A DNA stretch of 32,000 nucleotides from Spirillospora sp. CA-142024 (GTDB taxonomy: Bacteria > Actinomycetota > Actinomycetes > Streptosporangiales > Streptosporangiaceae), in the NCBI RefSeq assembly GCF_050942325.1, contig NZ_CP192077.1, positions 8,662,121 through 8,694,120 on the forward strand, given 5' to 3'. Positions 1,588-21,837 of the stretch are shown here, one piece after another. Within the stretch, counting starts at the first letter, position 1. The number at the start of each line of letters is the position of its first letter. The notes under the pieces are model-generated. The model ran no database searches. It worked only from the letters and a program-made list of their open reading frames with translations, and was not told the DNA's origin. A program made the translations under genes and the position numbers.

Positions 1588-1836
1588 TCAGGCCGGGCCA
1601 TCGTCAGCGCTGGGACCGTAGTGGGCGTCGTGTTGTTGGCGGGGGGAGCAGACTGAGGCGGAGGGGCAGGAGCAGCGGCGGGAGCCCACCTTCACCGTCA
1701 CCCTGTCGGCGGGGACGTTGTAGCCGATCACCTGCCCGTCCCCTTCCGGCGTACTGACCCGCGACCCCAACCGCGGCGCCTTCTCCTTGAACTCCATGTA
1801 GAGCGGGTGCTCGTTGTACCTCTGAAGTGCATACTG
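1588..1836 (-). pseudogene. Truncated, diverged duplicate of the 3' end of the PSP1-domain gene (att-associated remnant)
   Basis: The translation ALQRYNEHPLYMEFKEKAPRLGSRVSTPEGDGQVIGYNVPADRVTVKVGSRRCSCPSASVCSPRQQHDAHYGPSADDGPA* aligns with the C-terminus of the intact gene at 21838-22680 (CCLKYEHPLYVKAHDSMPKLGSRVDTPNGPGQVVGRNVPADKVTVRLNSGGRCSCPSASVCSPRQQHEATYNRASDETAT*). There is no N-terminal 200 aa. Confidence 0.8.
1628..1679. repeat. Left copy of the 52-bp direct repeat (candidate attL core)
   Basis: tcgtgttgttggcggggggagcagactgaggcGgaggggcaggagcagcggc at 1628-1679 matches 21878-21929 except at one base (1660 g vs 21910 t). Confidence 0.75.
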
Positions 1837-3479
1837 AATCTATGGCTTCGGAGGCGGACATGGCCAAGTCCCGCTGGTGGATCGCGCCGGACCTTGCGGA
1901 GGCGCTTGAACGCGGCGAGACCTTCGCAGACTGGCTTGCAGGACGCATCCCAGTGGCATCGTACGCACGCATCTCAGCGGACATCACGCGCGACGAGCAC
2001 GGGGTAGAGGACCAGCACGCATCGAACGGACGTCACGCAGGCAACCTCGGACTCGCGATCGTCAAGTACTACGAGGACAACGACAAGACGGCAGCCAAGG
2101 ACGAGGTGATCCGGGACGCCTTCGATCTCCTCGTCAAGGAGATCAACCGCCGCCGGACGAGCGAAGGCTTCCGCGTCCTCGGCGTCCTGTGCACCGAACG
2201 GGAACGGCTCTACCGCCGTCCGGGCGACTACGAGCGGATCATCAACGCCCTGACGGTCGACGATGACGGCCTCCTCGTCGAAGACGGGAAGCACTTCGAC
2301 CTCTACGGGGACGGCGCAGAGATGATCGGCCTCGTCGGCGTCGCCCAGTCCATGAAAGAGATCCGCAAGATTCGCCAGCGGACGAAGCGCTCTCATGTCT
2401 CCCGCGCCCAACGCGGCAAGTTCACGGGTGGCCCGCGTAGGTTCGGCTGGCTGGGCGCAGACAAGAAGACCGAGCGTCCCGCGAACATGGAGAAGAACCC
2501 CGAAGAGTGGCCGATCCTGAAGCAGATGATCCGGGACGGGGTAGCCGGCAAGTCCTGGATGACCATTGCCAACGGCCTCAACAAGCGCGGCATCCTCACC
2601 TCGAAGGGCGGGAAGTGGAGTCAAACAAGCGTCCGCGCTCTGCTCACGAATCCGTTCATCTGCGGCTACCGCAAACTGAACGGTGACCTCGTTCGCGACG
2701 ACGAGGGCAACATCAAGGTGGGAGAGTGGGACGCCCCAGCCACCCCAGCACAGTGGCGCGCCATGTGCGAACGCTCTCGCCAGTCGGGAGCCCAGAAAGG
2801 TCTAGCTGTGGATAGCCTGGACCACTCCCCCGGTGGGCCTTCGGACCGCAGCCGTGTTTACCTCTTCTCGGGCTTCCTTCGCTGCGGCAACACTCTCGAA
2901 GACGGCACCATGTGCAACGGGCGCATGGGCGGCACCCGCCGCAAGAACCGCGATGGAACCTACGGCTACCACTATCGCTGTGTCGCCGACGGCAAGGGCG
3001 CATGCGGCCGAATCTCCCGCAACGGCGCAGAGGTCGATCGCTACCTCAAAGAACTGGTTCTTCAGAAGCTTGAGAAGGAACTCAAGAACCGCACCCGACG
3101 GCAGTCGAGGCCATGGGACGGGGAAGCCGAACTAGAACGACTGGAGAAGAAAGTAGCCAACCTACGTCAGCAGTGGCGAGACGACGTCGTGACAGACGAT
3201 TTCTTCTACGCCGAACTACCTCCGCTCGAAGGAAAGCTTCGAAAGTTGCGGACAGAACAGGAACGCCACACCCTCGCTGAGCAACAGAGCCAGTCGCTAA
3301 CCGCGGACATCCGCGAGGAGTGGGAAGGCATGGACCTAGCACAGAAGCGCGCAGCCATCGGCCGCGTACTCCGAGCGGTCATCGTCTCCCCGCTAGAAGA
3401 GGGCGCATGGCGACGAGGCCCCTTCGACCCCACCAAACTCCGCCCCATCTGGCGCGAAAGAAGCGGCAATGTTCCGTAG
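1827..3479 (+). CDS. Large serine recombinase (integrase of the element)
   Basis: Resolvase-type N-terminal domain with a catalytic-Ser context (VASYARISAD...GVEDQ). A recombinase domain is followed by a Cys-rich zinc ribbon (FLRCGN...CNGRMGG...YHYRCVADGKGACGRISRNG) and a long coiled-coil tail (LERLEKKVANLRQQW...). The start may be a downstream Met at 1842 or 1860, because 1827-1836 overlaps the gene remnant. Confidence 0.9.
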   Translation: MHTESMASEADMAKSRWWIAPDLAEALERGETFADWLAGRIPVASYARISADITRDEHGVEDQHASNGRHAGNLGLAIVKYYEDNDKTAAKDEVIRDAFDLLVKEINRRRTSEGFRVLGVLCTERERLYRRPGDYERIINALTVDDDGLLVEDGKHFDLYGDGAEMIGLVGVAQSMKEIRKIRQRTKRSHVSRAQRGKFTGGPRRFGWLGADKKTERPANMEKNPEEWPILKQMIRDGVAGKSWMTIANGLNKRGILTSKGGKWSQTSVRALLTNPFICGYRKLNGDLVRDDEGNIKVGEWDAPATPAQWRAMCERSRQSGAQKGLAVDSLDHSPGGPSDRSRVYLFSGFLRCGNTLEDGTMCNGRMGGTRRKNRDGTYGYHYRCVADGKGACGRISRNGAEVDRYLKELVLQKLEKELKNRTRRQSRPWDGEAELERLEKKVANLRQQWRDDVVTDDFFYAELPPLEGKLRKLRTEQERHTLAEQQSQSLTADIREEWEGMDLAQKRAAIGRVLRAVIVSPLEEGAWRRGPFDPTKLRPIWRERSGNVP

Positions 3480-4820: not shown

Positions 4821-6638
4821 CTACGAGGTGGCGCGCCAGCGGCCACGGGTGGTCTGGGTGGCGCGGCCAGTCTTCGAGAGATCTTGAAGGCGGTAGTAGA
4901 TCCATGAGCGGCCCATGCCAGTCCCGTTCATGAGGTGGACGATGGGTGTTCCCTCGTCGGGCGCTTGGCTCAGCATCTGCCAAAGGACGACCTCAGGGCC
5001 GTCCTGAGGCCCTGTTGCGTCGGCTCTCGGAGTCGTTGCGGTCCCCTTCCCCTGCGGGGGCGCGTCGCGTGGCTCTGGGTCGCTCAGAATGGTCGCCTCG
5101 TCGATTGCTCGTCGGGAGACCTCGTCGAGGGGCGGACGGGAGCCGGTGTGCTTTTCGGCGGTCGCCCTCACAGTCTCGTCCGTCAGCAGGTACGCGCGAG
5201 CGCGACGAGGCGTGTCATGCTCGGGTGCCGAGACAAGAAACTTGCCGGGTGCGTTGAGGGTCTGGGCGTGCCAGCCGGCGTTGAGCATTCCCTGCCCAAG
5301 GATGAGATCCACGTCCTTACGCTCGCGGACGCGGAAACCTAGGCGGACGTCCATTTGCGATCGGACGGCGCCCTTTCCCATTGCTTTCTGAGTTGGGCGC
5401 TGAGTGGCCGCGATGAGTTGCACCGCGACGGCACGTCCGCGACGAGCGATGGAATCGCTGTACGACGTCGCGTCTGCGGCTTCCTCTGCCAGTTCGGCGT
5501 ACTCGTCGATGATGATCACGAGTGCAGGGTTGTCGCGTGTCGGCTCCCATACTCGTTTCCCAGTCTCGGCGAGAGTGGCGGCACGCGCCTCCAGGACGAC
5601 CACAGCGTCACGGAGAAGGCGGCGTGCTTCTTCCGGAGTAGTCGCGAGTCGATCGATGCACTCTGCCCACGGCTGGAGTTCCATGCCGCGCTTGAGGTCG
5701 ATGGCCCAGATGACTACGTCTCCGCAGGCGGACAGGTTGCCCATGAGGACGTTGATGCCGCCGCTCTTGCCCGATCCCGCGATGCCTCCGATGAGGGCAT
5801 GCCGACGCAGGAGGAGGACACGTGCGGGTGCGGCATCCTCGAATGGGCCGAGGTCGATCGGTTCCGTGATTGTCGTGACGGATGGTCCAGGCCACGCAAT
5901 GGCGTTGGCGTGCGGGTCGATGTTGAGTACCCGCAACTCGAAGCGGTTCGCCCTGTCGTCACGGGTCGGGTAGACGCGGACGGCACCTCTGAACGTCCCG
6001 AGTGCGGATTCGAGCGCCGGAATCTTGCCGATCGCGTCTTGGATCGTCTGGCCGCGTGCCAGGCCGAAGCGGGCGCGCCATCCCCATACGTCCACCACGG
6101 CGGACATGACGCGGGAGCCTGCCAGCCCGACCGATTGGGAGATCTCGGGCCACGCGGCAAGCGTGCGCTCGACGCGGACTCGGGCGCGCCGGCGTCGGTG
6201 TACCCACCAGGGCACGGACAGGATGGGCGTACCGACGAGGATGATTTGCGGTAGCGGCCGGTAGGCCACGCCGAGTGCTGTTGCTGCGGCAAGCCATCCT
6301 CCGGCGCTCAGCGCGACGGTTGCCGCGTACAGACGCTCGATCCGGAGTGACAGGCCGATGCGGTCACCGACGAGGCCCAGAGCCGACGCGGACACGATGG
6401 CCGTGCCGAGGATGCCGATCCACCATCCGGGATGCGACAGGTGGAGGGTCAGCGATGCGGCGACGAGGACGAGGGCCAGTGCGATCGGCCCGATTTCGGA
6501 GCGGTAGCGCCAGAGTCCTCGGGCGATGATGACGGCTGCGAGATCGGGAACCGGTCCGTTGGAGTCGATGACGACCATGGGCTGTAGCCCGTTGCGGCGC
6601 ATGCGGCGGGCGTGGCGCTTCATCTGCTGGTTCTTCAT
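4821..6638 (-). CDS. FtsK/SpoIIIE-family DNA translocase (TraB/TraSA-like conjugative transfer protein)
   Basis: N-terminal hydrophobic helices. Walker A GGIAGSGKSGGINVLMGNL, Walker B ALVIIIDEYAEL, then ATQRPTQKAMG...RSQMDVRLGFRV. A C-terminal winged-helix-like tail is present. The start overlaps the upstream stop as ATGA. Confidence 0.9.
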   Translation of the reverse strand: MKNQQMKRHARRMRRNGLQPMVVIDSNGPVPDLAAVIIARGLWRYRSEIGPIALALVLVAASLTLHLSHPGWWIGILGTAIVSASALGLVGDRIGLSLRIERLYAATVALSAGGWLAAATALGVAYRPLPQIILVGTPILSVPWWVHRRRRARVRVERTLAAWPEISQSVGLAGSRVMSAVVDVWGWRARFGLARGQTIQDAIGKIPALESALGTFRGAVRVYPTRDDRANRFELRVLNIDPHANAIAWPGPSVTTITEPIDLGPFEDAAPARVLLLRRHALIGGIAGSGKSGGINVLMGNLSACGDVVIWAIDLKRGMELQPWAECIDRLATTPEEARRLLRDAVVVLEARAATLAETGKRVWEPTRDNPALVIIIDEYAELAEEAADATSYSDSIARRGRAVAVQLIAATQRPTQKAMGKGAVRSQMDVRLGFRVRERKDVDLILGQGMLNAGWHAQTLNAPGKFLVSAPEHDTPRRARAYLLTDETVRATAEKHTGSRPPLDEVSRRAIDEATILSDPEPRDAPPQGKGTATTPRADATGPQDGPEVVLWQMLSQAPDEGTPIVHLMNGTGMGRSWIYYRLQDLSKTGRATQTTRGRWRATS

Positions 6639-7266: not shown

Positions 7267-7989
7267 TTACGAGGGGTCGGTGTCTTCGGACTCGTCCGGG
7301 TCGTTGAGTTGCCGGCGTAGTTCGGTCGCCTTGGGGGTGCTGATCCTCAGCGACGTCCGGAGCGCGTCACGGGTGATGGGACGACCGTGCATCTGTCGGT
7401 ACTGGGCATCGGCGAACCGGGCCGCATCCATCAGTTCCTCGTCGGTACGGCGAGGCGGACGCCGTACCCGTCGCTTCGGATGAGGGGAGGAGGCGTCGTC
7501 CCTGCCGCTCTTCGGTTCGTCCTCAGCAAGCGGCGGCGCGTCGATCCGGCTGCGGAGGGCGTGAAGGTGTGCGGTGAGTCCGAGGACGGCAGCGGGTACG
7601 GCACCGACGAGGACGACGATCGGCCATGAGAGGTCGAGCAGTCCGGCCCCTATCGCGTGGTACGCGGCGTTGCCGGTGATGCTCATCGCGATCGCGCCGA
7701 GAGCGTTCGTCCGGGCGAATCGGCGCGCGGCGGCCGAACGGGTTGTGCTGGCCAGCCACACGCGCGCCGAGGTCATGGCGTGCGCGTCGATGGTGATCGG
7801 CAAGAGCCACGCCAGCCGTACGGGCCAGCCGGCAACGGTGGCCAGCCCGTACAGACCGGTGAAGCTGGCGACCGCAGCCGAGACGGCCGCGATCGTCATA
7901 CCGATCATCACCCACCAGTCCCGTACCGGATCGTCCTCGTCGGGGACGGATTCCGGTACGAGGGTCGGGTGCGCATCGGTCGCGGACAT
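7267..7989 (-). CDS. DUF2637-like integral membrane protein with a C-terminal HTH-like tail (AICE spread/transfer protein)
   Basis: Helices with WWVMIGMTIAAVSAAVASFTGLYGLA...LAWLLPITIDAHAMTSARVWL resemble DUF2637 proteins of actinomycete conjugative elements. The C-terminus reads RPITRDALRTSLRISTPKATELRRQL. Confidence 0.7.
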   Translation of the reverse strand: MSATDAHPTLVPESVPDEDDPVRDWWVMIGMTIAAVSAAVASFTGLYGLATVAGWPVRLAWLLPITIDAHAMTSARVWLASTTRSAAARRFARTNALGAIAMSITGNAAYHAIGAGLLDLSWPIVVLVGAVPAAVLGLTAHLHALRSRIDAPPLAEDEPKSGRDDASSPHPKRRVRRPPRRTDEELMDAARFADAQYRQMHGRPITRDALRTSLRISTPKATELRRQLNDPDESEDTDPS

Positions 7990-8924: not shown

Positions 8925-9746
8925 ATGGCTGGCACGACATCGCTACCAGCGGGCGCGCGTGCAGGGGGTTCCAAGCCGAATCTGTACGAGGTGATTCGGG
9001 ACCAACTGATAGGCGAGATCGAGTCGGGCCGATACCCGTCCGGCGCTCTGCTCCCGTCGGTCCGGGAGCTCACGGCGAAGATGGCCATCAGCACCACCAC
9101 GGCCCGTAAGGCGCTCGCTGAGGTGGTCGCGGCCGGCTACGCGCGCCCAGAGGGGACGCGTGGGCACGTCTCGACCGGTTCCCGTGCCCAGCACACCGCC
9201 GAGGACGCTCGCCAGCCGACCGAAGATGCGGCGGGGGACCGTCCCGCAGGCTTGATCATCCGGCCATCCGTGACCATCGCGTCAGACGGATTCGCAGGAT
9301 CCGAGACGGACCGGACAACGATCGACGTGCGCTCCGAACCGGCACCTGCCGAGGTCGCCATTGCGCTGGACCTCAACGACGCGACCTCGCCCGTAGTGGT
9401 CCGTAGGCGCCTCACGACTGACGAGCACGGGACACCGGTAGAGCTTCGAGCCAGCTACCTGGATCACGACTTCGCCCAGGGCACCGCGCTTGCCGAACCC
9501 GAACCCATTACTGGCTCATGGGTAGATGCCCTTGCCTCCGCAGACGGCAAGTCGTTGGGAGCGGCACAGCGCCACGTCTCAGCACGTCACCCAACCGACA
9601 CGGAATCGGCCATGCTCGGACTCCGCCCCACGGCCTGTGTGCTCGTCCGTACAGAGACCACGCAGGACCAGAGCGGACGCCCGATCGACCACACAGTCAC
9701 GGTATGGCCCGCCGAAAGCACACGCCTCAACCTGGGGAGCGAGTGA
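8925..9746 (+). CDS. GntR-family (HutC/UTRA-type) transcriptional regulator, Kor-like
   Basis: N-terminal winged HTH YEVIRDQLIGEIESGRYPSGALLPSVRELTAKMAISTTTARKALAEVVAAGYA. The C-terminal UTRA-like part ends ...GRPIDHTVTVWPAESTRL. Confidence 0.85.
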   Translation: MAGTTSLPAGARAGGSKPNLYEVIRDQLIGEIESGRYPSGALLPSVRELTAKMAISTTTARKALAEVVAAGYARPEGTRGHVSTGSRAQHTAEDARQPTEDAAGDRPAGLIIRPSVTIASDGFAGSETDRTTIDVRSEPAPAEVAIALDLNDATSPVVVRRRLTTDEHGTPVELRASYLDHDFAQGTALAEPEPITGSWVDALASADGKSLGAAQRHVSARHPTDTESAMLGLRPTACVLVRTETTQDQSGRPIDHTVTVWPAESTRLNLGSE

Positions 9747-9925: not shown

Positions 9926-10681
9926 TCGATCGTCGTCCGGTATTGGAATTCGTACCGATCAGCACGGTAAATGATCTTCGCGACCTCGACCGGTGTGTCT
10001 CCCGCCCAGAACGTTTGCCATATCTGGATCACGGGGACACCCGCCGGAATGTCGAGCTGCGCCTCTTCGTGTGGTTCGGGCATGCGGACTTGCAGAACCT
10101 CTTCTTCCACATCTACCGAAGTAGCCGATCGCGTCGAATCGCGGGACAATTCCCTGTCCGCCGTACGGCCCTTCGTGGGGCGACTCGATCTCAGTGCCAG
10201 CCGTGATCGCGAGAGGCTCCCATGCCACGCTGAAAGAGACAGGGCTCCCGCCCATGCTGATTGCATACGAGGTCTCGGTAACAGGGTCGCCCTCGTCGAT
10301 GCCGAGACGTTCCGCAACGCCGGCGGGAGCCTCTGCGCGCTCCGTGGAATGCTCCATGTGGAGTTCCATACCCGCGCGGTCCGACTCCTGTCGATACGCG
10401 GGCTTGGCATGCGGACGCTGGAACCGGTCCCAATGGGTTCTGACGAGGGGCGGGCTCTTCGCAACAAAGGCGCCCTGACCTGCCAGGAAGTAGATTGCGC
10501 CAACGTTCCTCAGTGCGATGAGCGCTCGACGCGCCGCGCTCAACTCACAATCCCACCGCTGGGCCAGCTCCTGAGCGCTTGGCAACGGCGAATCAGGAGT
10601 CAAGTCTCCGCTCTTGATCTGCGACTGAAGGTCGTCGGCGATGGCCTGATACGGGGAGCTTTGCTGATCACGGTCGACCAT
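9922..10681 (-). pseudogene. Second GntR/HutC-family regulator, interrupted by a frameshift near 10111-10130
   Basis: The N-terminal HTH (YQAIADDLQSQIKSGDLTPDSPLPSAQELAQRWDCELSAARRALIALRNVGAIY) and part of the UTRA domain are in the frame of ORF 9959-10681. The conserved UTRA end (VDVEEEVLQVRMPEPHEEAQLDIPAGVPVIQIWQTFWAGDTPVEVAKIIYRADRYEF) is in the frame of ORF 9922-10503. Confidence 0.7.
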
Positions 10682-10764: not shown

Positions 10765-10977
10765 TCAGATCAAGTCGTGCTCACGATCCTTGACGCGACG
10801 CACGAACGCTCGCCATTCGGTCGCCGCGAAGATCAATATTGGTCCGTCCGGGTCCTTCGAGTCACGCACACCGACCGCAGGTGCCGCGCTCGCCACCTCA
10901 ACGCATGCTCCTCCGTGGTGGTCGCTACGGCTCGCCTTACGCCACCGGAGACCCGTGGGGTTCGGCAAGTTCATCAT
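10765..10977 (-). CDS. DUF397 domain protein (BldB-like)
   Basis: WRKASRSDHHGGACVEVA...VGVRDSKDPDGPILIF...EWRAFV is the canonical DUF397 pattern. The start overlaps the upstream XRE stop (ATGA). Confidence 0.85.
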   Translation of the reverse strand: MMNLPNPTGLRWRKASRSDHHGGACVEVASAAPAVGVRDSKDPDGPILIFAATEWRAFVRRVKDREHDLI

Positions 10978-11816
10978 CCGAGTTCCTCCATCAAACTTTC
11001 GATCAGGCGACGGGACTCATCAATTCGGAGCGCGTCACCTCGAAGCAAGTTGTACAACACCGCACACTCTGCAACGGATTTCTTCTCCTGGAGAAGCATC
11101 CCTTGCCCACCAGCTTCGATGTAGGCGACATCGGTCGAGTCCGCAAAACTGAGCATGATGAAGCTCCCACCCAACCCGGGGTAGTACCCGGCATCCTGCG
11201 GGACGACATCGATCCACACGTTGGGCAACTCGCTAATGGAGAGCAGATGCTGAAGTTGCTCACGTACCACCGTAGGGCCACCGATCACACGCCGCAAAGC
11301 GAACTCGTCGATCGTGAACCATGCTTGAGGTGCGTCCTCAGCAGTGAACAACTCTTGCCGCTTCAAACGGTCCTTCACGAGTTGATCCACCATATCCGGT
11401 CTCTGATTACGTCCAAGCACGGTTCGAATGTAGCTCTCCGTCTGCAACAGCCCATTGACCATGGCAACGTCGAACGCCCGAATGGTAGCCGCTTCCGCTT
11501 CCATTTCGAGGTACTGGTCGAACCCGGGAGGCCGGATCGTCCGGTGACGTGTGTCGATGATGCGCTTCCAAAGGCGCGAGAATAGACCGTTCGTCCTGAA
11601 AAAGGTGTCGAGGTCCTGGGCGAACTTCTCTGAAGGAATGTTCTTGCCGGCTTCGATCTGGCCGAGCCATTGCGGCGTGTATCCGAGCTTCTCGGCCAAG
11701 TCTTGCTTGCTCAGCTGCGCTTCCGAGCGCCACGCCGTGACCTCTGCCGCAAATGTCTGGATAGCCGGATCTTCGTACGCTTCACGCCGTGATCCCATTG
11801 CCGACTCCTCTACCAA
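10974..11816 (-). CDS. XRE-family HTH regulator with a DUF5753-like C-terminal domain (WhiJ-like)
   Basis: HTH LSKQDLAEKLGYTPQWLGQIEAGKNIPS, followed by a long C-terminal domain typical of actinobacterial WhiJ-type paralogues. The start may be Met7 (11798). Confidence 0.85.
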   Translation of the reverse strand: MVEESAMGSRREAYEDPAIQTFAAEVTAWRSEAQLSKQDLAEKLGYTPQWLGQIEAGKNIPSEKFAQDLDTFFRTNGLFSRLWKRIIDTRHRTIRPPGFDQYLEMEAEAATIRAFDVAMVNGLLQTESYIRTVLGRNQRPDMVDQLVKDRLKRQELFTAEDAPQAWFTIDEFALRRVIGGPTVVREQLQHLLSISELPNVWIDVVPQDAGYYPGLGGSFIMLSFADSTDVAYIEAGGQGMLLQEKKSVAECAVLYNLLRGDALRIDESRRLIESLMEELG

Positions 11817-13172: not shown

Positions 13173-14132
13173 CTATCCCAACACCGACGCTTCGAGGGCC
13201 ATGCTGAACTCCGGATCGATCTGAGTCGTGAGATCGACCCCCACAGACTTGTTGGCCCAACTCTCAGCGTTCTTGACGTGGAACTCCGCACCCTGCCGAG
13301 AGAACTTCTCCCAGTCCTTCGGCTGCGCGTCCACCTCGGCCTGAAGGCGTCGCAGCACCTCCCGCCCAGGACCGTCGAGCGCGCTGAGGTCGAAGGGACG
13401 ACCTTGCTCCATGGCCCGAACGGCCGGTTGGTGCCCCATGCACGTCAGCAGGTCATCCCCCACCTGCGAGCGTAGGAACGCCTCGTCGTCGCTGGTCTGG
13501 ACCTTGTTGCCCACGACCGCGATCTTCACCCCGAAGTCCCGCGCGTGGTCGGTGTACTGCTGGTAGACGGCTACGCCCTTCCTCGTCGGCTCGACGACGA
13601 GGAACATCACGTCGAACCGCGTGAACAGCCCAGAGGCGAACGTGTCCGCCCCCGCCGTCATGTCCACGACGACGTACTCTCCGGGACCGTCAACGAGGTG
13701 GTTGAGGTACATCTCAACCGCTCCCGTCTTCCCGTGATAGCAGGACACCCCAAGGTCCTTGTCGTCGAACTGGCCGGCCGCCATGAAGGTCACGCCACCG
13801 AACCGACGAGACATGGCATGGATCGGGTCGTCACCCCCGATCCGCAGGAGCTTCGAGCCGCGCCCTGGTGGCGTCGTCTTCACCATTTGAGCCGCGGACG
13901 CGATACGAGGGTTATCGCCCCTGAGGTACTCCTTGATGACGTCGAGGTGCGCTCCCAGCGCCGGCACGCTGGCGACCTCCTCATCACTGAGCCCCAAGGC
14001 CGCGCCGAGGTGCTGATTGATGTCCGCGTCGATCGAGACAACCGGCACCCCCTCCGCATCCAGATGACGGATGAACAGCGACGACGTAGTGGTCTTCCCG
14101 CTACCGCCCTTACCCACGAACGCAACCTTCAC
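13173..14132 (-). CDS. MinD/ParA-superfamily P-loop ATPase, CooC-like
   Basis: VKVAFVGKGGSGKTTTSSLFIRHLDAEGVPVVSIDADINQHL is a deviant Walker A of the Mrp/MinD/CooC type; YVVVDMTAGADTF is a Walker B-like segment. GGGAGGG precedes the GTG at 14132. The tracked ORF extends to 14261. Confidence 0.8.
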   Translation of the reverse strand: MKVAFVGKGGSGKTTTSSLFIRHLDAEGVPVVSIDADINQHLGAALGLSDEEVASVPALGAHLDVIKEYLRGDNPRIASAAQMVKTTPPGRGSKLLRIGGDDPIHAMSRRFGGVTFMAAGQFDDKDLGVSCYHGKTGAVEMYLNHLVDGPGEYVVVDMTAGADTFASGLFTRFDVMFLVVEPTRKGVAVYQQYTDHARDFGVKIAVVGNKVQTSDDEAFLRSQVGDDLLTCMGHQPAVRAMEQGRPFDLSALDGPGREVLRRLQAEVDAQPKDWEKFSRQGAEFHVKNAESWANKSVGVDLTTQIDPEFSMALEASVLG

Positions 14133-14462
14133 GAACCCTCCCAAAGAGACGATGAAAACCGTTGTCGTTGCTCCAAGTGTCCTCGGAAGCAAAGCACGTC
14201 GCAAGCGGTTCATCACTGTCCGTGTCGACAGAGCCTCCCACCGCAGGCAATTTGTAAGCATTTGCGCAAAAGCGATAGGCGAGAAGACGCTTTAGCTGAC
14301 GAATAGCCCTCAAAGTGATGGAGATTCGAGCATCAAACCAGAAAAGGGGTTTTTGCTCAGCCATGCAGATGGAAACTTCTACTACCCGAGGCGATTCACT
14401 GACCGCCACAGACGAGCGGCCGATCTGATCGACAGAGGGCAAATTCAGTACTAGATCAAAAT

Positions 14463-14900
14463 TCAGTCTAGATGATCTCTTAGACGGGCTGCAATTGCAT
14501 CAGTATCAGCGATCGACGACTCCTCTACATGCTCCCACTCCGTCCCACCATCGGGCAACGTCCCGGCAACATGGAAATGAACGTGAGGAATCGTTTGATG
14601 TGCAGGGATACCATTGTTCTGCCAAACAGCTACGCCTCGGACTTTATAGGCATTGCTGACTGCTTTGGCGGCCGAGATAATAGCAGGCATGATAGCCGTA
14701 GCTTCATCTTTTGTCAGATCGATTAGGGTAGGCCTATGTCTTATTGGCATTACCAGTAGATGTCCTACACCGCGCTGCTCTCGCGTCACCAAAGTAGCTA
14801 CGGCCTCAGTTCTTGTGAGAATGGTAAACGGTCGAACCCCTGCCAAGTATTCACAAAATGGGCAAGGCCATATCTTGGGGACGTCCAGCGATGCATTCAT
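14463..14900 (-). CDS. HIT (histidine triad) family nucleotide hydrolase/transferase
   Basis: CPFCEYLAG near the N-terminus, GHLLVMPIRH, and the histidine triad QTIPHVHFHVAG. The ATG overlaps the stop of the upstream Macro-like gene (ATGA at 14897-14900). AT-rich composition. Confidence 0.85.
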   Translation of the reverse strand: MNASLDVPKIWPCPFCEYLAGVRPFTILTRTEAVATLVTREQRGVGHLLVMPIRHRPTLIDLTKDEATAIMPAIISAAKAVSNAYKVRGVAVWQNNGIPAHQTIPHVHFHVAGTLPDGGTEWEHVEESSIADTDAIAARLRDHLD

Positions 14901-15763
14901 GACGGCTTAAGCGACCTTAAGAAGGCTTGCAATTCCAGCATATCGAGATTGTCGACATCCGAACTCCTGACCACAATATTTAGCCGATCGGCGACCTTCT
15001 CTTTGCGGGAGGCAAAAATATATGACAAAGCAATGAAGCGAATAGAGTCCTGAGCAGGGAAATATTGAGAGATGCGAGCTTGCCCGCCCCCGATTACTGC
15101 GACCGAGATAGGGTCCCCATTACCCTTCGCCCGAACCTCATCCCACAGATTATTCAGGCTACGCCAGACACGGTCGACGCTCCCGCGTACCTCATTTCGT
15201 TTATTCATCTCCGTGTAAGCTACACAGAAGTACAGGCGGCGAATCGAGGGCGAAATCGCAACGACTGTCCCGACAGGATAGGCCACCTGCTTGCCTGGCT
15301 TAGCATCTTGAGGCGTGAACCGATGGCTTTCGTTGTAAGGGGCGAGCCCCTGCTCTAAAGCCCTATCAAGCGCACGAATATCATTGCGGTAGACTCGCGT
15401 CAGAAGCTGCGCCTGCACACCTTTTTCATCGATGATATGTGGGATCTCGGTGTCAAAGGTGTCCGTCATACCGATGACTATGTTTCCTTCCTGTTCAAAT
15501 AGATCTCCTTCGACAATATGAATTTCGGTGTTGGGAGACTTATACTGTTGCCGCACAGGTCTAGGCCAAGATCTATAAAGACCATATGTAGGTGATATCA
15601 GGAGGACTGTGCCTACAAAAAACACTCCCATTGGAGGAAGCGCTTTTGGGAACAGTGCAGAAACTATGCCCGCAACCACGGCAAAGAAGCCGACGCAGGA
15701 CAAAGTCTGAGTCGAAAACCTTGCCCAGAAGCGCTTTTTTGTCAGGTCCCTTACAATAGCCAC
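14897..15763 (-). CDS. 2-TM membrane protein with a C-terminal Macro-like domain (type II Thoeris ThsA-like effector candidate)
   Basis: Two N-terminal hydrophobic helices (LSCVGFFAVVAGIVSALF, MGVFFVGTVLLISPTYGLY). Then IHIVEGDLFEQEGNIVIGMTDTFDTEIPHIIDEKGVQAQL...VAVIGGGQARI, which resembles the ThsA-type Macro domain. The GTG start sits directly after the TAATAA stop of the TIR gene. Confidence 0.6.
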   Translation of the reverse strand: MAIVRDLTKKRFWARFSTQTLSCVGFFAVVAGIVSALFPKALPPMGVFFVGTVLLISPTYGLYRSWPRPVRQQYKSPNTEIHIVEGDLFEQEGNIVIGMTDTFDTEIPHIIDEKGVQAQLLTRVYRNDIRALDRALEQGLAPYNESHRFTPQDAKPGKQVAYPVGTVVAISPSIRRLYFCVAYTEMNKRNEVRGSVDRVWRSLNNLWDEVRAKGNGDPISVAVIGGGQARISQYFPAQDSIRFIALSYIFASRKEKVADRLNIVVRSSDVDNLDMLELQAFLRSLKPS

Positions 15764-15766
15764 TTA

Positions 15767-16276
15767 TTAGAGACCAATCTTTCGATATGTTTCAGCCTTA
15801 TAGTAGTGAGCCCCCTTCTTATTGGATACAGCATACGCAGGAGCGTAATTGTCTAGAGCGTATCGAATTATCCTAGGCTGGAACGAAACTGATAGCGTGT
15901 AGTAGTCGTCATCAATAAACCGTTGAGGAATGAAGTTTTCATCAATGAAACGATCCCCATCCAGGTTGGCAATAATTACTGGCAGGTCGAGCTTCGAAAT
16001 AACCTCGACCTCATAATAGAGAAACGACTTTCCGTCTCCCGCCTTCTTCTTCCCCTTCGCACTGCCCAGTATGATGGCTTGTTTCGTGTTAGCCAGCCGC
16101 AGACGAAGGCTTCGCCGGATGGTCTCTGGCAGACTAGTATCCCTTGCCTGTGCAAGATCGTGTGCGTCTAGGAAGTTGAAATCGATGTGCTCGTTATCGC
16201 GCCAGGCTGTCATGAGTCTGTAGTAGTTAATGTCTTCACTGGCGAAGGCTACGTAGGTCTTATTGCGATAACTCAT
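15767..16276 (-). CDS. TIR-like domain protein (DUF1863/ThsB-like)
   Basis: KTYVAFASEDINYYRLMTAWRDNEHIDFNFLDAHDL...TKQAIILGSAKG...YYEVEVISKLDLPVIIANL fits the ThsB/MTH538 TIR-like pattern: beta1 with an acidic loop, a second strand, then a conserved Glu. GGAGGA lies upstream of the ATG. Confidence 0.7.
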   Translation of the reverse strand: MSYRNKTYVAFASEDINYYRLMTAWRDNEHIDFNFLDAHDLAQARDTSLPETIRRSLRLRLANTKQAIILGSAKGKKKAGDGKSFLYYEVEVISKLDLPVIIANLDGDRFIDENFIPQRFIDDDYYTLSVSFQPRIIRYALDNYAPAYAVSNKKGAHYYKAETYRKIGL

Positions 16277-16679: not shown

Positions 16680-17636
16680 CTAATCTCTTAGCCAGCGTTC
16701 AATGGCTACAGGAACAGTGGCTTCAATATCGGTGAGATCGAATGTCTCCCGCAGGGTGCCCAATATATCTGCCCGGAGATTACTAAATGCGTTATCGGCT
16801 AGTAGGAGAGCTGGCTTGTTGAGCGCTCGCATGAATCCGTATTCAAGAGCAACGTTTGGATTAAATTCGTTAGCCGCCCTGTCTTCCAGGATGGCAACTC
16901 CACGGCTACAGCAGAGCATGTATACGCAGACATTATTCCAGAGATTTCGATCTGGCATGTAAACCTTATCGTCCGCCCTGACCGGATTATAACCGTGTTC
17001 GCGCAAAGCTTTTCGAATTTCTTGATCTAGCGTGACAAGGAACTTGCTCCCAGCATCAAAGCGTGTCATTAGGAAGACGTTGCGCTCGTATCTCGGGTGA
17101 TCCTTAAAGAAACGTTCGCACTCTTTCGCAAGGAAGTCGTAGCCTGGAGGGAGAGAGAAGTTTCCCATTGTATCGAACCCTCTAACGTAATGCGATTGCC
17201 ATCTAATGGCATAATCGACCTGCAAGCGCAATATAGCTTGCACCTGAGAGGGCAGCAATCCCCAATCCTCTTCGATATTTCGACCTTCAACCTCAGGAAG
17301 GAAGAAGAGGCAGTCCTGCTGCCTCAATTCAAAGTCTCGATACAATGAATCGAGAAGATTGAGGATGGCGTCTGATTCGAGAGAGACCTCGTCAATCGGT
17401 TGAACGTTTTCTGGCAACGATAGCAAGTTGACCCCATTGACCGACGAAATTACGTCAGCCGATCCCTTGTCGCGCAATACGAACAGCCGCACGGAGTCAG
17501 AGGCGCGATAAACTTTGCCGTCGAAACTCTGGATGGGCCAGCGATACAGATCCGCCCTGCGGTCTTCTTCGACTATTCGACGCATCCAATCCCTGAATCC
17601 AAAACACCAATCTATGTTGAAGTGCTCACGAACCAT
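16680..17636 (-). CDS. Hypothetical protein with a C-terminal nucleoside 2-deoxyribosyltransferase/TIR-like Rossmannoid domain
   Basis: The C-terminal 130 aa read VFLMTRFDAGS...LDQEIRKALREHGYNPVRADD...NLWNNVCVYMLCCSRGVAILED...FNPNVALEYGFMRALNKPALLLAD. This reproduces the strand-helix-strand layout and the x-N-V-x-x-E-x-G motif of NDT/TIR-like clades. The N-terminal 185 aa were not recognised. Confidence 0.55.
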   Translation of the reverse strand: MVREHFNIDWCFGFRDWMRRIVEEDRRADLYRWPIQSFDGKVYRASDSVRLFVLRDKGSADVISSVNGVNLLSLPENVQPIDEVSLESDAILNLLDSLYRDFELRQQDCLFFLPEVEGRNIEEDWGLLPSQVQAILRLQVDYAIRWQSHYVRGFDTMGNFSLPPGYDFLAKECERFFKDHPRYERNVFLMTRFDAGSKFLVTLDQEIRKALREHGYNPVRADDKVYMPDRNLWNNVCVYMLCCSRGVAILEDRAANEFNPNVALEYGFMRALNKPALLLADNAFSNLRADILGTLRETFDLTDIEATVPVAIERWLRD

Positions 17637-17717: not shown

Positions 17718-20700
17718 TCAGCAACTGAGCCCTCTCACATATGTAATGGCCTCAACAAGCGCGTCAGGAGAGGCGATGCCAACTGCTGTGAGGAGGTCCG
17801 TAGCCGTCGCGTATACCATTGCCGATGAGATCAGCTGCCGAGCGCGGGCCGCATCAGTTGTTCTGGCGATGGCTTCGAGGGCATATGCAGCCGCCGGAGG
17901 GTTGACAATGGATCCAACGATGGCTTCAGCGCGCTCAACTTGTCCAGCTTCCACCAAGGCGTCGACCACGCTGCTCAACGCGGAAGCCTGACTCTGGGGG
18001 CTGGTGATAGTACGGGCGACGGCTTCAGCCCGTACTAGACTCCCAATTCTCGCCAGCGCGTCGACCACGCTGCTCAACGCATAGGCCCGATTCTGGGGGT
18101 CAGTGATAGCGCGGGCAACATTCTCGGCTTCGGTAGCCAACTCAGCAGCCTGCTCAACCTGACCCGCCTTCACCAACGCGTGGACCACAGTGCTCAGCGC
18201 GTTTGCCTGGTTCTGGAGGTCGGTGATGGTCCGGGCGACAGCTTCAGCCCGTCCAAGACTCCCCATGCTCACCAGCGCCCAAACAACGTTACTCAGCGCG
18301 GACCCCTTACTTCGGGGGTCGGCGATAGCGCGGGCAAGGGTCTCGGCTTCGTTGGCTAACTCGGCAGCCTGCTCAACCTCACCTACCTCCGCCAGGGTGC
18401 CGGCCACTCTGCTCATCGCATACACCTGGTTCAGCAGGTCGGTTATGGCGCGGGCAACGGTCTCGGCTTCGTTGGCCAACTCAGCAGCCCGCTCACCCCC
18501 ACCTACCTCCACCAGCGCTTCGACCACACTGCTCAGCGCGTTTGCCTGGTTCTGGGGATCGGTGATGGTCCGGGCAACGGCTTCAGCCCGTTCTAGGCTC
18601 CCCATGCTCGCCACTGTGTCAACCACTCTGCTCAGCGCGTAGGCCCGGTTCTGGGGGTCGGTGATGGTGCGGGCAACGTTTTCCGCTTCGATAGCCAACT
18701 CAGCGGCTGGCTCGGCCCGACCCGCCTTCACCAACGCGTCGACCAGATTGCTCAGCGCATAGGCCTGACTATGGGGGTCGGTGATGGTGCGGGCAACGTT
18801 CTCCGCTTCGGTAGCCAACTCAGCAGCCCGCTCAACCCCACCCACGTCCACCAACGCGCGGGCTACCCTGCTCAGCGCGTAAGCCTGGTTCTGGGGGTCG
18901 GTGATGGTCCGGGCGACAGCTTCAGCCCGTACCAGGCTCCCCATGCTCACGAGCGCGTCGACCACACTGCTCCACGCATAAGCCTGGCCCAAAAGATCGG
19001 GAACGGAATTGGCGACGTTCTCGGCTTCCGTGGCCAACTCAGCAGCCCGCTCAACCCCACCCACGTCCACCAACGCATCGACCACACTGCTCAGCGCGTC
19101 TGCCTGGTTCTGGGGGTCGGTGATGGTCCGGGCGACGGCTTCAGCCCGTTCTAGACTCCCCAAGCTCACCAGCGCCCAAACAATGTGCTTCAGCGCGAAC
19201 GCTTGGTTTCGGGGGTCGGTGATGATCCGGGCAAGGGTCTCGGCTTCGGTAGCCAACTCAGCAGCCCGCTCAACCCCACCCACGTCCACCAACGCGTCGA
19301 CCACACTGCTCAGCGCATACACCTGGTTTCGAGGGTCGGTGATAGTCCGGGCGACGTTCTCCGCTTCGGTAGCCAACTCAGCAGCCCGCTCAACCCCACC
19401 CGCCTTCACCAACGCGCGGGCTATCCTGCTCAGCGCGTAAACCCGACTCTGAGAGTCGGTGATAGTGCGGGCAAGGGTCTCGGCTTCGGTGGCCAACTCA
19501 GCGGCTGGCTCGGTCCGCCCCACCTTCACCAACGCATCGGCCACGCTGCTCAGCGCGTCTGCCTGGTTTCGAGGGTCGGTGATGGTGCGGGCGACGGCTT
19601 CAGCCCGTTCTAGACTCCCGATGGTCACCAGCGCGTCGACCACGATGCTCAGCGCATAGGCCTGACTCAAGAGATTTGGAACGGAATTGGCGATGTTCTC
19701 CGCTTCCGTCGCCAACTCAGCAGCCCGCTCAACCCCACCCGCGTCCACCAACGCGTCGACCACTTTGCCCAGCGCCACTACCTGGTCCGGAGGATCGCTG
19801 AGAGAATGGGCCAATGCGAGGGCACGATTAAGATTTCCTAGACGTGCCCAGGCAGCCGGAAGTCCTACGGGGATGTTGCTGTTGCGTTGGATAAGGCGTT
19901 GCCGGGTCAAAGCAACGTGGAGAGCCGAGACTAAGTCAGGGCTAGGTTGGTCACGAATGTGCTCCAGAACGGTGATAATGTCAGCTATTGCCGCACCGTC
20001 TCCTTTGCTTACATCCAGCATGCGGTCTAAGCGTTCTTGATCTGCAACCAGTGCCCGCATGCGCGACAAGTCACCGATTTTGTGAAGCTGTTGAAGGTAT
20101 CCGCGGAGCAAATATTCCGGTGTACCTTTGGGCCAGCCAGAACCTCGATAGCGCTCTGCCCAGGCATGGATCCGCTCCCACCATGCTTGGGTCTCCACTT
20201 GGCGGAGGGATCGCAAAACACTCTGCACGAGTTCCTCATGAGCCAGCACGAGGAGTTCATCGCCATTGTCGGCCCACCGTGGGGCACGGCAAGTAAATGA
20301 TCGGCCCGTGACGGCATGAAGGATCCGTTCCACCTCCCCCACCGGCTCACCTGTCAACTCCGCCAAGTCCCGGCCTGATAGGCCACCTCCCGCCGTTACC
20401 AGCAGGCCAAGCAGGTCACGCCCTACCCCGCCGCCATCCAAGAGGTCTGACAACTCGCGCTCGGCTGCGGCTCGGAACGCCACCGCCCAATCAGAAGGCC
20501 GCAATGCACGGACGATTCCCTGCTTCTGGAGCGGATGCCAGTCCGGCACGTCCCCCGGTACAGGCGGGTTCGGACGGCCTGACACCACGACGCGCACCCC
20601 TTCAGGGGGCCGACCGGGCAACAAAGCGGCGATGCTGTGAGCATCCCTGCTACGTCGCACGCCCCGGTCCTCGTCCAATCCATCGACCACGAGCACCAGC

Positions 20701-21212
20701 CGGTATCCGTCCGCCGCGCACTTGCCCGCAGCCTCCTCCAGCAGTTGCAAGAACCACTGCTGGCGATTCGACTCAGTCAACACATCCGGCAGCGCTTGAC
20801 CTGTTAGTTCCGCCAATTGCTCCAACACCGCTGCCAAAAATGCGGACCGGTCGCTCTGGCCCGCAAGCCGCGCAGTGATAAAAAAGGACACCACACGGAC
20901 CCTTGCCGGCGGATTCTGCACAAAAGACGCCATCAACGCCGACTTGCCAGCCCATGCCGGAGCTTGCCACCACACATAATCCGGACCTTCCGGGCATGTG
21001 CAGAACTCTGCCAACTCTTCAAGCTCCGCCCGGCGATCCTTCAGCTCACCGGAGAAAATCTGCTCAACCTGCCGCGCATACGCCGAGCGGAAAGGACCTG
21101 TCGCTCGCATTCCGTAATAATTGTTCTGAATGCCAGTATTAACATTCGCGCCATCACCACCCGACGCGCGCCCCGACCGGCGAACCCAACCCCACCAAGG
21201 TCGACTCGTCAA
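17718..21212 (-). CDS. NACHT-type STAND NTPase (bacterial NLR-like) with a C-terminal array of about 18 alpha-helical repeats
   Basis: Walker A WWQAPAWAGKSALMASF. NACHT-like Walker B RLVLVVDGLDED. A helical/winged-helix region is followed by repeats of the form ERAAELATEAENVARTITDPxNQxYALSxVVDALVxxGxx. The start overlaps the stop of the upstream small gene. Confidence 0.85.
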   Translation of the reverse strand: MTSRPWWGWVRRSGRASGGDGANVNTGIQNNYYGMRATGPFRSAYARQVEQIFSGELKDRRAELEELAEFCTCPEGPDYVWWQAPAWAGKSALMASFVQNPPARVRVVSFFITARLAGQSDRSAFLAAVLEQLAELTGQALPDVLTESNRQQWFLQLLEEAAGKCAADGYRLVLVVDGLDEDRGVRRSRDAHSIAALLPGRPPEGVRVVVSGRPNPPVPGDVPDWHPLQKQGIVRALRPSDWAVAFRAAAERELSDLLDGGGVGRDLLGLLVTAGGGLSGRDLAELTGEPVGEVERILHAVTGRSFTCRAPRWADNGDELLVLAHEELVQSVLRSLRQVETQAWWERIHAWAERYRGSGWPKGTPEYLLRGYLQQLHKIGDLSRMRALVADQERLDRMLDVSKGDGAAIADIITVLEHIRDQPSPDLVSALHVALTRQRLIQRNSNIPVGLPAAWARLGNLNRALALAHSLSDPPDQVVALGKVVDALVDAGGVERAAELATEAENIANSVPNLLSQAYALSIVVDALVTIGSLERAEAVARTITDPRNQADALSSVADALVKVGRTEPAAELATEAETLARTITDSQSRVYALSRIARALVKAGGVERAAELATEAENVARTITDPRNQVYALSSVVDALVDVGGVERAAELATEAETLARIITDPRNQAFALKHIVWALVSLGSLERAEAVARTITDPQNQADALSSVVDALVDVGGVERAAELATEAENVANSVPDLLGQAYAWSSVVDALVSMGSLVRAEAVARTITDPQNQAYALSRVARALVDVGGVERAAELATEAENVARTITDPHSQAYALSNLVDALVKAGRAEPAAELAIEAENVARTITDPQNRAYALSRVVDTVASMGSLERAEAVARTITDPQNQANALSSVVEALVEVGGGERAAELANEAETVARAITDLLNQVYAMSRVAGTLAEVGEVEQAAELANEAETLARAIADPRSKGSALSNVVWALVSMGSLGRAEAVARTITDLQNQANALSTVVHALVKAGQVEQAAELATEAENVARAITDPQNRAYALSSVVDALARIGSLVRAEAVARTITSPQSQASALSSVVDALVEAGQVERAEAIVGSIVNPPAAAYALEAIARTTDAARARQLISSAMVYATATDLLTAVGIASPDALVEAITYVRGLSC
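17940..19835 (-). repeat. In-frame tandem coding repeats (alternating 99-nt and 120-nt units) inside the STAND gene
   Basis: The 44-nt string gccaactcagcagcccgctcaaccccacccacgtccaccaacgc occurs identically at 18814-18857, 19033-19076 and 19252-19295. Many further near-identical units are visible. They translate to 33- and 40-aa repeats. Confidence 0.85.
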
Positions 21213-21553
21213 CGCGACTCCACCCCGCTATTGGCATCCCCGCCCTCAGCATCGCCCGTGCGATCCACCCGGACGCCATCGGGCACCGAACCACCCACCG
21301 AGAGCCCTGTGTTCGCCCTCCCCCCAGGCCCCGCCGTCGCCTTCCCCGTCCGAGACACACGCACACTTGAGAGGCCTCCCGCGACCACCGGCCAGGCCGC
21401 CCACACCGCCACCCCCACCGCAGCAACCCCCGCCAAGGCCGAGGCACTAGTCGCAATCTTGTTGGCGTCGTCCCATTTCAACACCAGGAACAACACCACC
21501 AACACCGCTACCACGACACCCGACACAACCAGCGCGACCCGCCCACCATGCAT
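21209..21553 (-). CDS. Small 2-TM protein with a Gly/Asn-rich C-terminal tail (candidate membrane effector partner of the STAND NTPase)
   Basis: GAGGGAAG lies 8 nt upstream of the ATG at 21553. Hydrophobic helices VALVVSGVVVAVLVVLFLVL and ALAGVAAVGVAVWAAWPVVAGG. The tail is VSRTGKATAGPGGRANTGLSVGGSVPDGVRVDRTGDAEGGDANSGVESR. The stop overlaps the NTPase start. Confidence 0.65.
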   Translation of the reverse strand: MHGGRVALVVSGVVVAVLVVLFLVLKWDDANKIATSASALAGVAAVGVAVWAAWPVVAGGLSSVRVSRTGKATAGPGGRANTGLSVGGSVPDGVRVDRTGDAEGGDANSGVESR

Positions 21554-21837
21554 TCCGACATCTTCCCTCAAGATCACCAATATTGCCGAGGGCTGGAACA
21601 TAAGACCGAACTAGGTCAACGGTCTCAGCAGTGACAAGAAGCGATCTCCGACGGACGGTCGGCGCCTGGATCCTCCCATGAGATCTGTCCAGGTTGCTCG
21701 GCAGTTGGGCCTGCGATCGCCGTTGCCTGACTGAAGTCAGCTCAGGTATTGGGGCGATCGGTGACACGGAGTTCACCGTGCGCAGCCCGATCATCGTCGC
21801 GCTGTCCACTGGTCCCTGTCGACGATTAGCAGAAAGG

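Follow-up and report, generated by a model that had tools for sequence, protein, structure and literature searches.

Two overlapping genes on the minus strand of a 32,000-nucleotide stretch of the Spirillospora sp. CA-142024 genome (hereafter the window, in whose numbering all positions are given) encode a small protein with a predicted transmembrane (TM) hairpin, here called the effector, and an NLR-like STAND NTPase, here called the NLR, which share a motif of about 20 residues at the C-terminus of the former and the N-terminus of the latter. By analogy with characterised systems, we consider it moderately likely that the two form an NLR/effector module of the BASS type, in which amyloid-type templating by the NLR would polymerise the tails of effector hairpins already inserted in the membrane, with membrane breach and abortive infection or cell death as the outcome. 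Gene structure, motif sharing, conservation across the family, co-variation, modularity and the genomic setting of the module are documented below; from these we infer amyloid templating, damage to the membrane and a role in defence.

Gene structure and the shared motif

The effector gene comprises 114 codons and extends from an ATG at 21553 to a TGA stop at 21211-21209. This ATG, which is preceded by a Shine-Dalgarno-like sequence (Table 1), is preferred over an upstream ATG at 21601 because homologues begin at the equivalent methionine (MNGGRVALV...). The NLR gene starts with a TTG codon at 21212-21210, the sole start codon 5' of the motif in its frame. This is in agreement with the initial annotation of the window, which had the small gene ending within the start of the STAND gene: the two genes lie on the same strand and overlap by 4 bp, and an identical overlap is called in Thermomonospora umbrina and in Actinocorallia aurea. 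GC content at third codon positions (GC3) in the frame of the effector gene is 0.76.

The effector begins with MHGGR and continues with helix 1, the loop KWDDANK, helix 2, a first motif pseudorepeat (R1, VRVSRTGKATAGPGGRANTGL), a Gly/Pro-containing linker of nine residues (SVGGSVPDG) and a second pseudorepeat (R2, VRVDRTGDAEGGDANSGV). The two TM segments that the initial annotation had ascribed to the small protein are supported by hydropathy as well as by an AlphaFold2 (AF2) model of the monomer, which was computed from 42 homologues and has a mean pLDDT of 73. A three-strand pattern recurs in the modelled R1 (residues 64-67, 72-73 and 79-86) and R2 (residues 94-97, 102-103 and 106-113), and R1 packs against R2 already in the monomer. 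Positive charges at the N-terminus and after helix 2 would fit an N-in/C-in hairpin with a cytoplasmic tail. The effector has no match in Pfam, NCBIfam, PADLOC or PHROGs, and when only the tail (53 residues) was used in a protein search, one weak match was returned, the tail probably being of low complexity for the word index.

The N-terminus of the NLR reads MTSRPWWGW-VRRSGRASGGDGANVNTGI-QNNYYG and precedes a P-loop NTPase core, in which G89-K90-S91 form the Walker A motif, and a long, fast-evolving repeat array. Residues 44-510 match the PADLOC model STAND_TPR (E 5e-118), and TPR is also given by Pfam. The initial annotation had called this protein a NACHT NTPase, which holds in the broad sense of NPHP3_N and STAND_TPR; PF05729 (NACHT) itself was not matched in the Pfam search, which also revealed no further recognisable effector domain in the NLR. 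STAND_TPR, the closest PADLOC model, has an Xre-HTH where the Spirillospora NLR carries the motif. In the presumed sensor region the tandem repeats are recognisable at the DNA level, which suggests recent expansion or recombination of this domain. The first ~120 nt of the NLR gene (21100-21212), which encode the motif and QNNYYG, have a GC3 of 0.50 as compared with 0.67 in the remainder of the gene, and use AAT, ATT and TAT codons that are unusual for the Spirillospora genome.

All three copies of the motif, two in the effector tail and one in the NLR, are present as the initial annotation had written them. The NLR N-terminus aligns with the effector tail with a local BLOSUM62 score of 52 (shuffled sequences, 24.0 ± 4.7; 0 of 5000 reaching 52), and R1 aligns with R2 with a score of 46 (shuffled sequences, 20.1 ± 4.1; 0 of 5000 reaching 46). 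Shuffled sequences thus fall short of both scores, and the likeness is therefore not due to composition. The consensus, of about 20 residues, can be written as h-R-V-x-R-[TS]-G-x-A-...-G-G-x-A-N-[TS]-G-h. Effector tail and NLR N-terminus are both under purifying selection. Compared with the T. umbrina orthologue, the ratio of nonsynonymous to synonymous differences per site (pN/pS) is 0.21 for the effector gene, 0.13 for the effector tail and 0.14 for NLR codons 1-34, with synonymous sites near saturation (pS 0.77); over all compared regions it ranges from 0.13 to 0.29.

Conserved pairing and co-variation of the two partners

The effector has 67 close homologues of ~108-118 residues, all of which are annotated as 'hypothetical' and none of which has a Pfam domain. 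A profile search of 1.84 billion representatives retrieved 324 clusters (50% identity) at E ≤ 1e-3, 183 of them at E ≤ 1e-10, and total length varies little within the family (~105-130 residues). Both the hairpin, including the RWDxANK loop, and the two repeats are conserved in the alignment of homologues, which are found in Thermomonospora, Actinomadura, Nonomuraea, Saccharothrix, Amycolatopsis and Streptomyces.

Pairing was assessed at loci from genome contigs, from contigs encoding named homologues and from soil metagenomes; the scan of genome contigs with the effector alignment keyed on a generic Ala/Val/Gly pattern and contributed only 6 loci. At each of the 36 loci where both partners are readable, the effector gene is followed on the same strand by one for a STAND NTPase with a single N-terminal copy of the motif, so that the motif, as the initial annotation would have it, is carried by both partners of homologous pairs. 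These pairs span at least 10 actinomycete genera as well as soil metagenomes, and across related loci the NLR gene overlaps the effector gene or starts within ~100 bp of it. Examples of the NLR-side motif are VRRSGDAAGGDGAIVNTGI in T. umbrina, SRTGDATAGPGGYANTGV in Saccharothrix and GSGAASADHGGVAISGV in Actinomadura. A hidden Markov model (HMM) built from effector tails only assigns 9-31 bits to the cognate NLR N-termini. Since the flanking neighbours vary between genomes, it is the two-gene pair that constitutes the conserved unit. The locus of Actinosynnema sp. CA-299493 (L013), which has transposases of the IS110 and DDE kinds and a further NACHT gene around it, encodes NLR motif and NTPase in different frames (6340-6500 of that locus), reflecting either a frameshift or a sequencing error.

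For analysis of co-variation, the two invariant ends of the motif, [ST]-G-x-A and A-X-[ST]-G-h, served to anchor the columns of the 36 pairs. At the key column X, Asn in the NLR is accompanied by Asn in both effector repeats at 17 loci, and Val or Ile in the NLR by non-Asn residues (Val, Ile or Thr) in both repeats at 13 loci; the NLR has Asn and both repeats Val or Ile at 4 loci, and a non-Asn NLR residue with Asn in both repeats occurs at none. Fisher's exact test on the effector and NLR states at this column gives 5e-6, an optimistic value for the reasons discussed below, and in a tree of the TM domain only, four or more separate clades show the state with non-Asn residues throughout. When 13 anchored columns are summed, the score is 32.75 for cognate and 28.83 for non-cognate pairs, a difference reached in 0 of 20000 permutations, and in 4 of 20000 when the key column is removed. 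The pairwise co-variation proposed as a check in the initial annotation is thereby found, and a cognate excess of this kind is not expected from independent drift along a shared tree.

An in-register cross-β or β-solenoid ladder would predict that a residue has to be the same in all three of the stacked copies, and the behaviour of the key column is compatible with such an arrangement. At two further columns R1 has basic and R2 acidic residues. Mean net charge over 153 members of the effector family is +2.4 for R1 and -2.2 for R2, and the combination of a basic R1 with an acidic R2 is found in 115 of the 153. Inter-layer salt bridges are present in the stacked HET-s solenoid, and the opposite charges of R1 and R2 may be reminiscent of these. 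The concerted change from Asn to Val, Ile or Thr and the charge pattern are both compatible with stacking, as features of sequence rather than of a structure.

The motif is not tied to one kind of protein. The NTPase accompanying the effector is of the NPHP3_N type at most loci; Streptomyces sp. Act143 has a canonical NACHT (PF05729) in its place, and S. glaucus an NB-ARC+TPR protein. On the effector side, two proteins (P0209 and P0193) have a double-repeat tail of identical type on an unrelated globular domain of ~190 residues, for which Pfam and PDB sequence searches gave no identity and which by eye only appears cyclase-like. Because it is coupled to several NTPase types and effector domains, the motif behaves as a portable signalling adaptor.

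Variant architectures include two rare gene calls, one of 1385 residues (P0197) in which effector, both repeats, NLR motif and NTPase form one open reading frame (ORF), and one (P0078) in which an NB-ARC domain is joined to the hairpin and to degenerate repeats. Saccharothrix variisporea has another STAND NTPase gene (L015, 1561-5238) ~0.8 kb upstream of the effector; this gene encodes an N-terminal, slightly degenerate copy of the motif (RTEAAWASAGGYANTGVHVGDINL), and two sensors may share one effector in this organism.

Relation to known systems and proposed mechanism

Bell/NLR pairs with ten families of BASS motifs have been defined, no fewer than five non-redundant pairs of genes being required for motif pairing, and prion behaviour, fibrils and seeding of the effector by the NLR have been described for BASS1 and BASS3 (Dyrka et al. 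2020, bioRxiv 10.1101/2020.01.06.895854). The Spirillospora pair is similar to these in its collinear, overlapping genes, with the effector preceding the NLR, in the ~20-residue motif at effector C-terminus and NLR N-terminus, in its filamentous actinomycete host, and in the presence of two effector pseudorepeats and one NLR copy, as in some BASS1 and BASS6 pairs, where there are two or three effector pseudorepeats (Dyrka et al. 2020, bioRxiv 10.1101/2020.01.06.895854). Of the features by which gene pairs of this type are recognised, we find adjacency (≤10 bp or overlap), a shared motif, at least five recurring pairs, a STAND partner with repeats and a filamentous host.

Membership of BASS1-10 was rejected on the basis of our effector-tail HMM, with which 31 representatives from Table S2 of Dyrka et al. 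2020 score ≤3 bits; this comparison covered BASS1-10 representatives and not BASS11. The same table lists as 'class_not_assigned' the pairs EYU71351.1/EYU71350.1 from Streptomyces sp. PCS3-D2 and PKT67323.1/PKT67324.1 from S. populi. The PCS3-D2 motifs (TGKATATDGGHAVTGV / SGNAVADNGGIAVSGI) and the two-repeat pair of S. populi obtain 15-26 bits with the effector-tail HMM, and judged by their motif sequences alone both pairs clearly have the motif of the Spirillospora pair. The statement in the initial annotation that the motif belongs to no named BASS family thus stands for BASS1-10, but the motif had already been recorded in these two unassigned pairs. The motif class is known but unnamed, and is found here to be large (324 clusters) rather than a rare singleton.

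The effector differs from Bell effectors, which are bundles of ~100 residues with five predicted helices and have a hydrophobic N-terminal helix in which residue 2 or 3 is acidic, whereas the Spirillospora effector has a two-helix hydrophobic hairpin of ~58 residues and starts with MHGGR, with no such residue; members of its family start with the consensus MxxxRxxL, in which position 5 is basic. When the effector alignment was compared by hhalign with a four-sequence alignment of homologues of the Bell protein EGX59652.1, which represents one subfamily only, the probability was 0.2%. A Bell domain was accordingly rejected, given two helices in 58 residues, no acid at position 2-3 and no profile likeness to the one Bell subfamily compared. 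The initial annotation had suggested that a two-TM effector with a duplicated motif may be new, which is sustained for the hairpin, but not for the duplication, which pseudorepeats of BASS1 and BASS6 had already shown (Dyrka et al. 2020). In the library searched, no paper was found to describe a BASS motif on a two-TM hairpin, and the effector is new as a predicted integral-membrane hairpin carrying a BASS-like motif of an unnamed family.

The pair can also be compared with HET-S/NWD2 from Podospora anserina, in which a single N-terminal NLR repeat (R0) faces two C-terminal pseudorepeats in the effector, joined by a flexible Gly/Pro-containing loop. An HRAM-like layout is present here, with two effector pseudorepeats, a nine-residue linker where 6-15 residues are expected, and a single NLR copy; a conserved Asn/Gly pattern, opposite repeat charges compatible with inter-layer salt bridges, and a membrane-targeting outcome would be further points of similarity. 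No sequence relationship was detected between the fungal and the bacterial pair, however, and the soluble, globular HeLo domain of HET-S inserts one helix only after templating, while the Spirillospora effector is predicted to be membrane-integral beforehand.

The Bab/Agp pair (BASS11) confers phage defence by abortive infection in E. coli (bioRxiv 10.1101/2024.11.07.622273). Compared by description rather than by sequence, it is similar in having an effector of ~110 residues with a C-terminal motif, an adjoining large sensor with an N-terminal motif, and a position within a mobile element's defence island, but its effector is a Bell-related helical bundle with solved structure and a single motif copy. 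In terms of effector type, there is a resemblance to other systems. The 2TM/4TM effectors of CBASS and Pycsar, as well as holin-like proteins, share with it a short length and two TM helices, and presumably kill by forming oligomers in the membrane when signalled from the cytoplasm; PADLOC and PHROGs gave no sequence likeness to them. In the TM effectors of CBASS and Pycsar a ligand binds to a cytoplasmic domain, whereas for the Spirillospora effector we propose templated polymerisation of the tail.

In the proposed mechanism, the effector would reside in the membrane as an N-in/C-in hairpin with its tail in the cytoplasm, the NLR being co-translated. Binding of a ligand to the repeat array would lead to NTP-dependent oligomerisation of the NLR, the N-terminal motifs gathered in this way would form a cross-β or β-solenoid nucleus, and this nucleus would template the R1-R2 tails of the effector, with equivalent residues stacking as an Asn or a Val/Ile ladder and salt bridges between the positive R1 and the negative R2 fixing the register. 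Polymerisation of the tails would then cluster the hairpins, breach the membrane and result in abortive infection or regulated cell death. The initial annotation had read the pair as NLR/effector signalling, and each computational prediction from that reading that was tested (pairing, co-variation, two-plus-one repeats, a common AF2 strand pattern in the two effector repeats, modularity and context) was borne out. A further-reaching version, which we put forward tentatively, is that the motif defines a widespread and distinct amyloid family (candidate 'BASS12') in which templated tails assemble pre-inserted hairpins into a lethal lesion, so that the fibre would act as a scaffold and not as a refolding switch, and in which switches from Asn to Val, Ile or Thr would insulate paralogous modules from one another.

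Several observations weigh against amyloid templating in this module. Cross-β assembly is deduced from analogy and from an AF2 monomer model of moderate confidence, and a Foldseek search of this model against the PDB gave no significant relative, the best hit, FapC, having an E-value of 2.9, which is not evidence. The motif is rich in Gly, Ala and Thr, has Pro in R1 and contains few large hydrophobic residues, and is for this reason less plainly amyloidogenic than BASS1 and BASS3. As regards co-variation, the four discordant loci (L002, L004, L028 and L039) form one clade, in which the NLR keeps Asn (GGYANTGVHIGDINLLTG) and the effector has Ile or Val; this clade may represent an intermediate state or a different register. 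An earlier test with local alignment scores on 15 pairs showed no cognate excess (45.7 versus 43.6, p ~0.15) and has been superseded by the anchored-column tests on 36 pairs, but the latter, although positive, take no account of phylogeny and draw on some loci that are near-duplicates, which makes their p-values optimistic. Homologues of the effector were not found in plasmid, phage or viral-contig collections. Finally, the exact sequence of the 114-residue effector is absent from a collection of 15 billion proteins that does contain the neighbouring ThsB from this genome, and none of six start variants of the NLR has an exact match there; the two genes may be unannotated, differently called or marked as pseudogenes in the public record.

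In the main alternative reading, the motif would be a non-amyloid homotypic adaptor, similar to effector-associated domains of Aravind-type conflict systems, that forms a finite, stoichiometric β-sheet complex with no self-propagation and thereby tethers the NLR to the membrane hairpin or gates the hairpin, the small protein perhaps being an anchor or co-sensor and not the killer. Conservation and co-variation reveal interaction or co-constraint of the three copies and not amyloid as such, the Gly/Ala-rich motif with its Pro would suit a finite complex, and, given that R1 packs on R2 in the AF2 monomer, the two could conceivably form a closed, heterotrimer-like stack with the NLR copy; an NLR with no other recognisable effector domain needs a partner in either case. 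We nevertheless regard such an adaptor as rather unlikely, since the two-plus-one repeats and their placement at the NLR N-terminus and effector C-terminus match the prion-forming HET-S/NWD2 and BASS pairs, since the motif, like BASS motifs, is portable among classes of NTPase and among effector domains, and since a hairpin of 58 residues has no evident activity beyond one gained by oligomerisation. That the small ORF is a spurious product of high-GC DNA, with motif likeness arising from a Gly/Ala/Asn-rich composition, is scarcely credible: such DNA does yield many spurious ORFs, several of which overlap the effector region, and the absence of the exact protein from the public collection could be taken in the same sense, but there are 324 homologue clusters conserved in length and sequence, a pN/pS of 0.13-0.29, a GC3 of 0.76, shuffle tests with 0 of 5000, and conserved synteny with a motif-bearing NLR, on which grounds this reading was rejected.

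Templated polymerisation of hairpin tails might also operate in a role other than phage defence, for instance in developmental or regulated cell death, in the recognition of kin or non-self by hyphae, or in retaining or excluding the mobile element that carries the pair. The role of actinomycete Bell/NLR pairs is still open (bioRxiv 10.1101/2024.11.07.622273), pairs occur in filamentous, multicellular actinomycetes, the Spirillospora pair is located on an integrative element with transfer genes of the FtsK/SpoIIIE type, and the T. umbrina pair lies outside any obvious defence island. A role of this kind seems improbable to us in view of the type II Thoeris system that neighbours the pair within a low-GC island, the location of other loci among further STAND NTPases and transposases, and the defence-associated nature of STAND_TPR, the closest PADLOC model; moreover, the sole functionally tested BASS pair is an abortive-infection system (bioRxiv 10.1101/2024.11.07.622273).

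While NLR-to-effector amyloid signalling in cell death is established in fungi, its tie to phage defence is recent and concerns one E. coli system, and the function and mechanism of many actinomycete pairs are open. The motif class left unassigned in 2020 because of its rarity emerges as a large family, most members of which are unannotated or 'hypothetical'. With ~114 residues the effector is minimal, consisting of a membrane hairpin and two repeats, and the candidate stacking position (N81 and N108 in the effector, N25 in the NLR), together with natural variants of the N type and the V/I/T type, makes the family suitable for studying specificity and cross-seeding. If polymerisation of the tail suffices to make an integral hairpin lethal, the activation logic would be unlike the refolding of HeLo and Bell domains, and amyloid signalling would be linked to the small TM effectors that are common in abortive-infection systems.

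Genomic context of the pair

The pair is located at the right edge of a ~20-kb block of lower GC content (window ~1700-21800), in which GC is 49-68% compared with 68-75% in the flanks. The block contains a large serine recombinase, an FtsK/SpoIIIE translocase and regulators, and no tRNA gene was found in it; judged by gene content, a candidate integrative element of conjugative type is supported, similar to actinomycete integrative and conjugative elements (AICE-like). A complete type II Thoeris system, with a GC content of 49-54% in a genome of ~70% GC, lies 1.4 kb downstream of the NLR. The recombinase, the translocase, the regulators and the atypical GC content support the proposal in the initial annotation that the effector/NLR module is cargo, here of a putative conjugative-type element or defence island. 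The host is not a Streptomyces but Spirillospora sp. CA-142024 (Thermomonosporaceae), to a protein of which the neighbouring ThsB is an exact match, and is a filamentous actinomycete.

Table 1. Features of the effector/NLR pair and of the surrounding lower-GC block (window positions).
Feature	Position	Strand	Remarks
Effector gene, 114 aa	21209..21553	minus	ORF and start codon; hairpin, then two motif pseudorepeats
Shine-Dalgarno-like sequence GAGGGAAG	21562..21569	minus	8-10 nt before effector ATG; sequence reading, putative function
TM helix 1, residues 3-25	21479..21547	minus	Predicted; Kyte-Doolittle 19-residue maximum 3.26; AF2 helix 3-25
TM helix 2, residues 32-58	21380..21460	minus	Predicted; Kyte-Doolittle maximum 1.97; AF2 helix 32-58; follows conserved (K/R)W(D/E)xANK loop
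Pseudorepeat R1, residues 64-84	21302..21364	minus	Net basic; AF2 strands 64-67, 79-86
Pseudorepeat R2, residues 94-111	21221..21274	minus	Net acidic; AF2 strands 94-97, 106-113
TTGA overlap, 4 bp	21209..21212	minus	NLR TTG start and effector TGA stop
NLR-like STAND NTPase gene, 1164 aa	17718..21212	minus	N-terminal motif, P-loop NTPase, long TPR/PPR-like repeat array
NLR motif copy, single, residues 10-28	21129..21185	minus	14.4 bits with effector-tail HMM; pN/pS 0.14
P-loop NTPase core, residues 69-213	20574..21008	minus	Pfam NPHP3_N (PF24883), E 3.7e-9
Presumed sensor region, tandem repeats	17933..19775	minus	Alternating 33- and 40-aa units; DNA periods 120, 219 and 339 nt, 70-81% matches
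Large serine recombinase	1827-3479		Lower-GC block
FtsK/SpoIIIE translocase	4821-6638		Lower-GC block
DUF2637	7267-7989		Lower-GC block
Two GntR/UTRA regulators	8925-9746, 9959-10681		Lower-GC block
Xre-DUF5753 regulator	10974-11816		Lower-GC block
ParA-like ATPase	13173-14261		Lower-GC block
thsA (Macro domain), type II Thoeris	14897-15763	minus	E 8e-115
thsB (TIR), type II Thoeris	15767-16276	minus	E 2e-83

Between the Thoeris genes and the NLR there is an ORF of 318 residues (16680-17636, minus strand), which has no match in Pfam or PADLOC and a weak match to a PHROG with no assigned function. In Actinocorallia aurea the pair is located near a RepSA replication gene.

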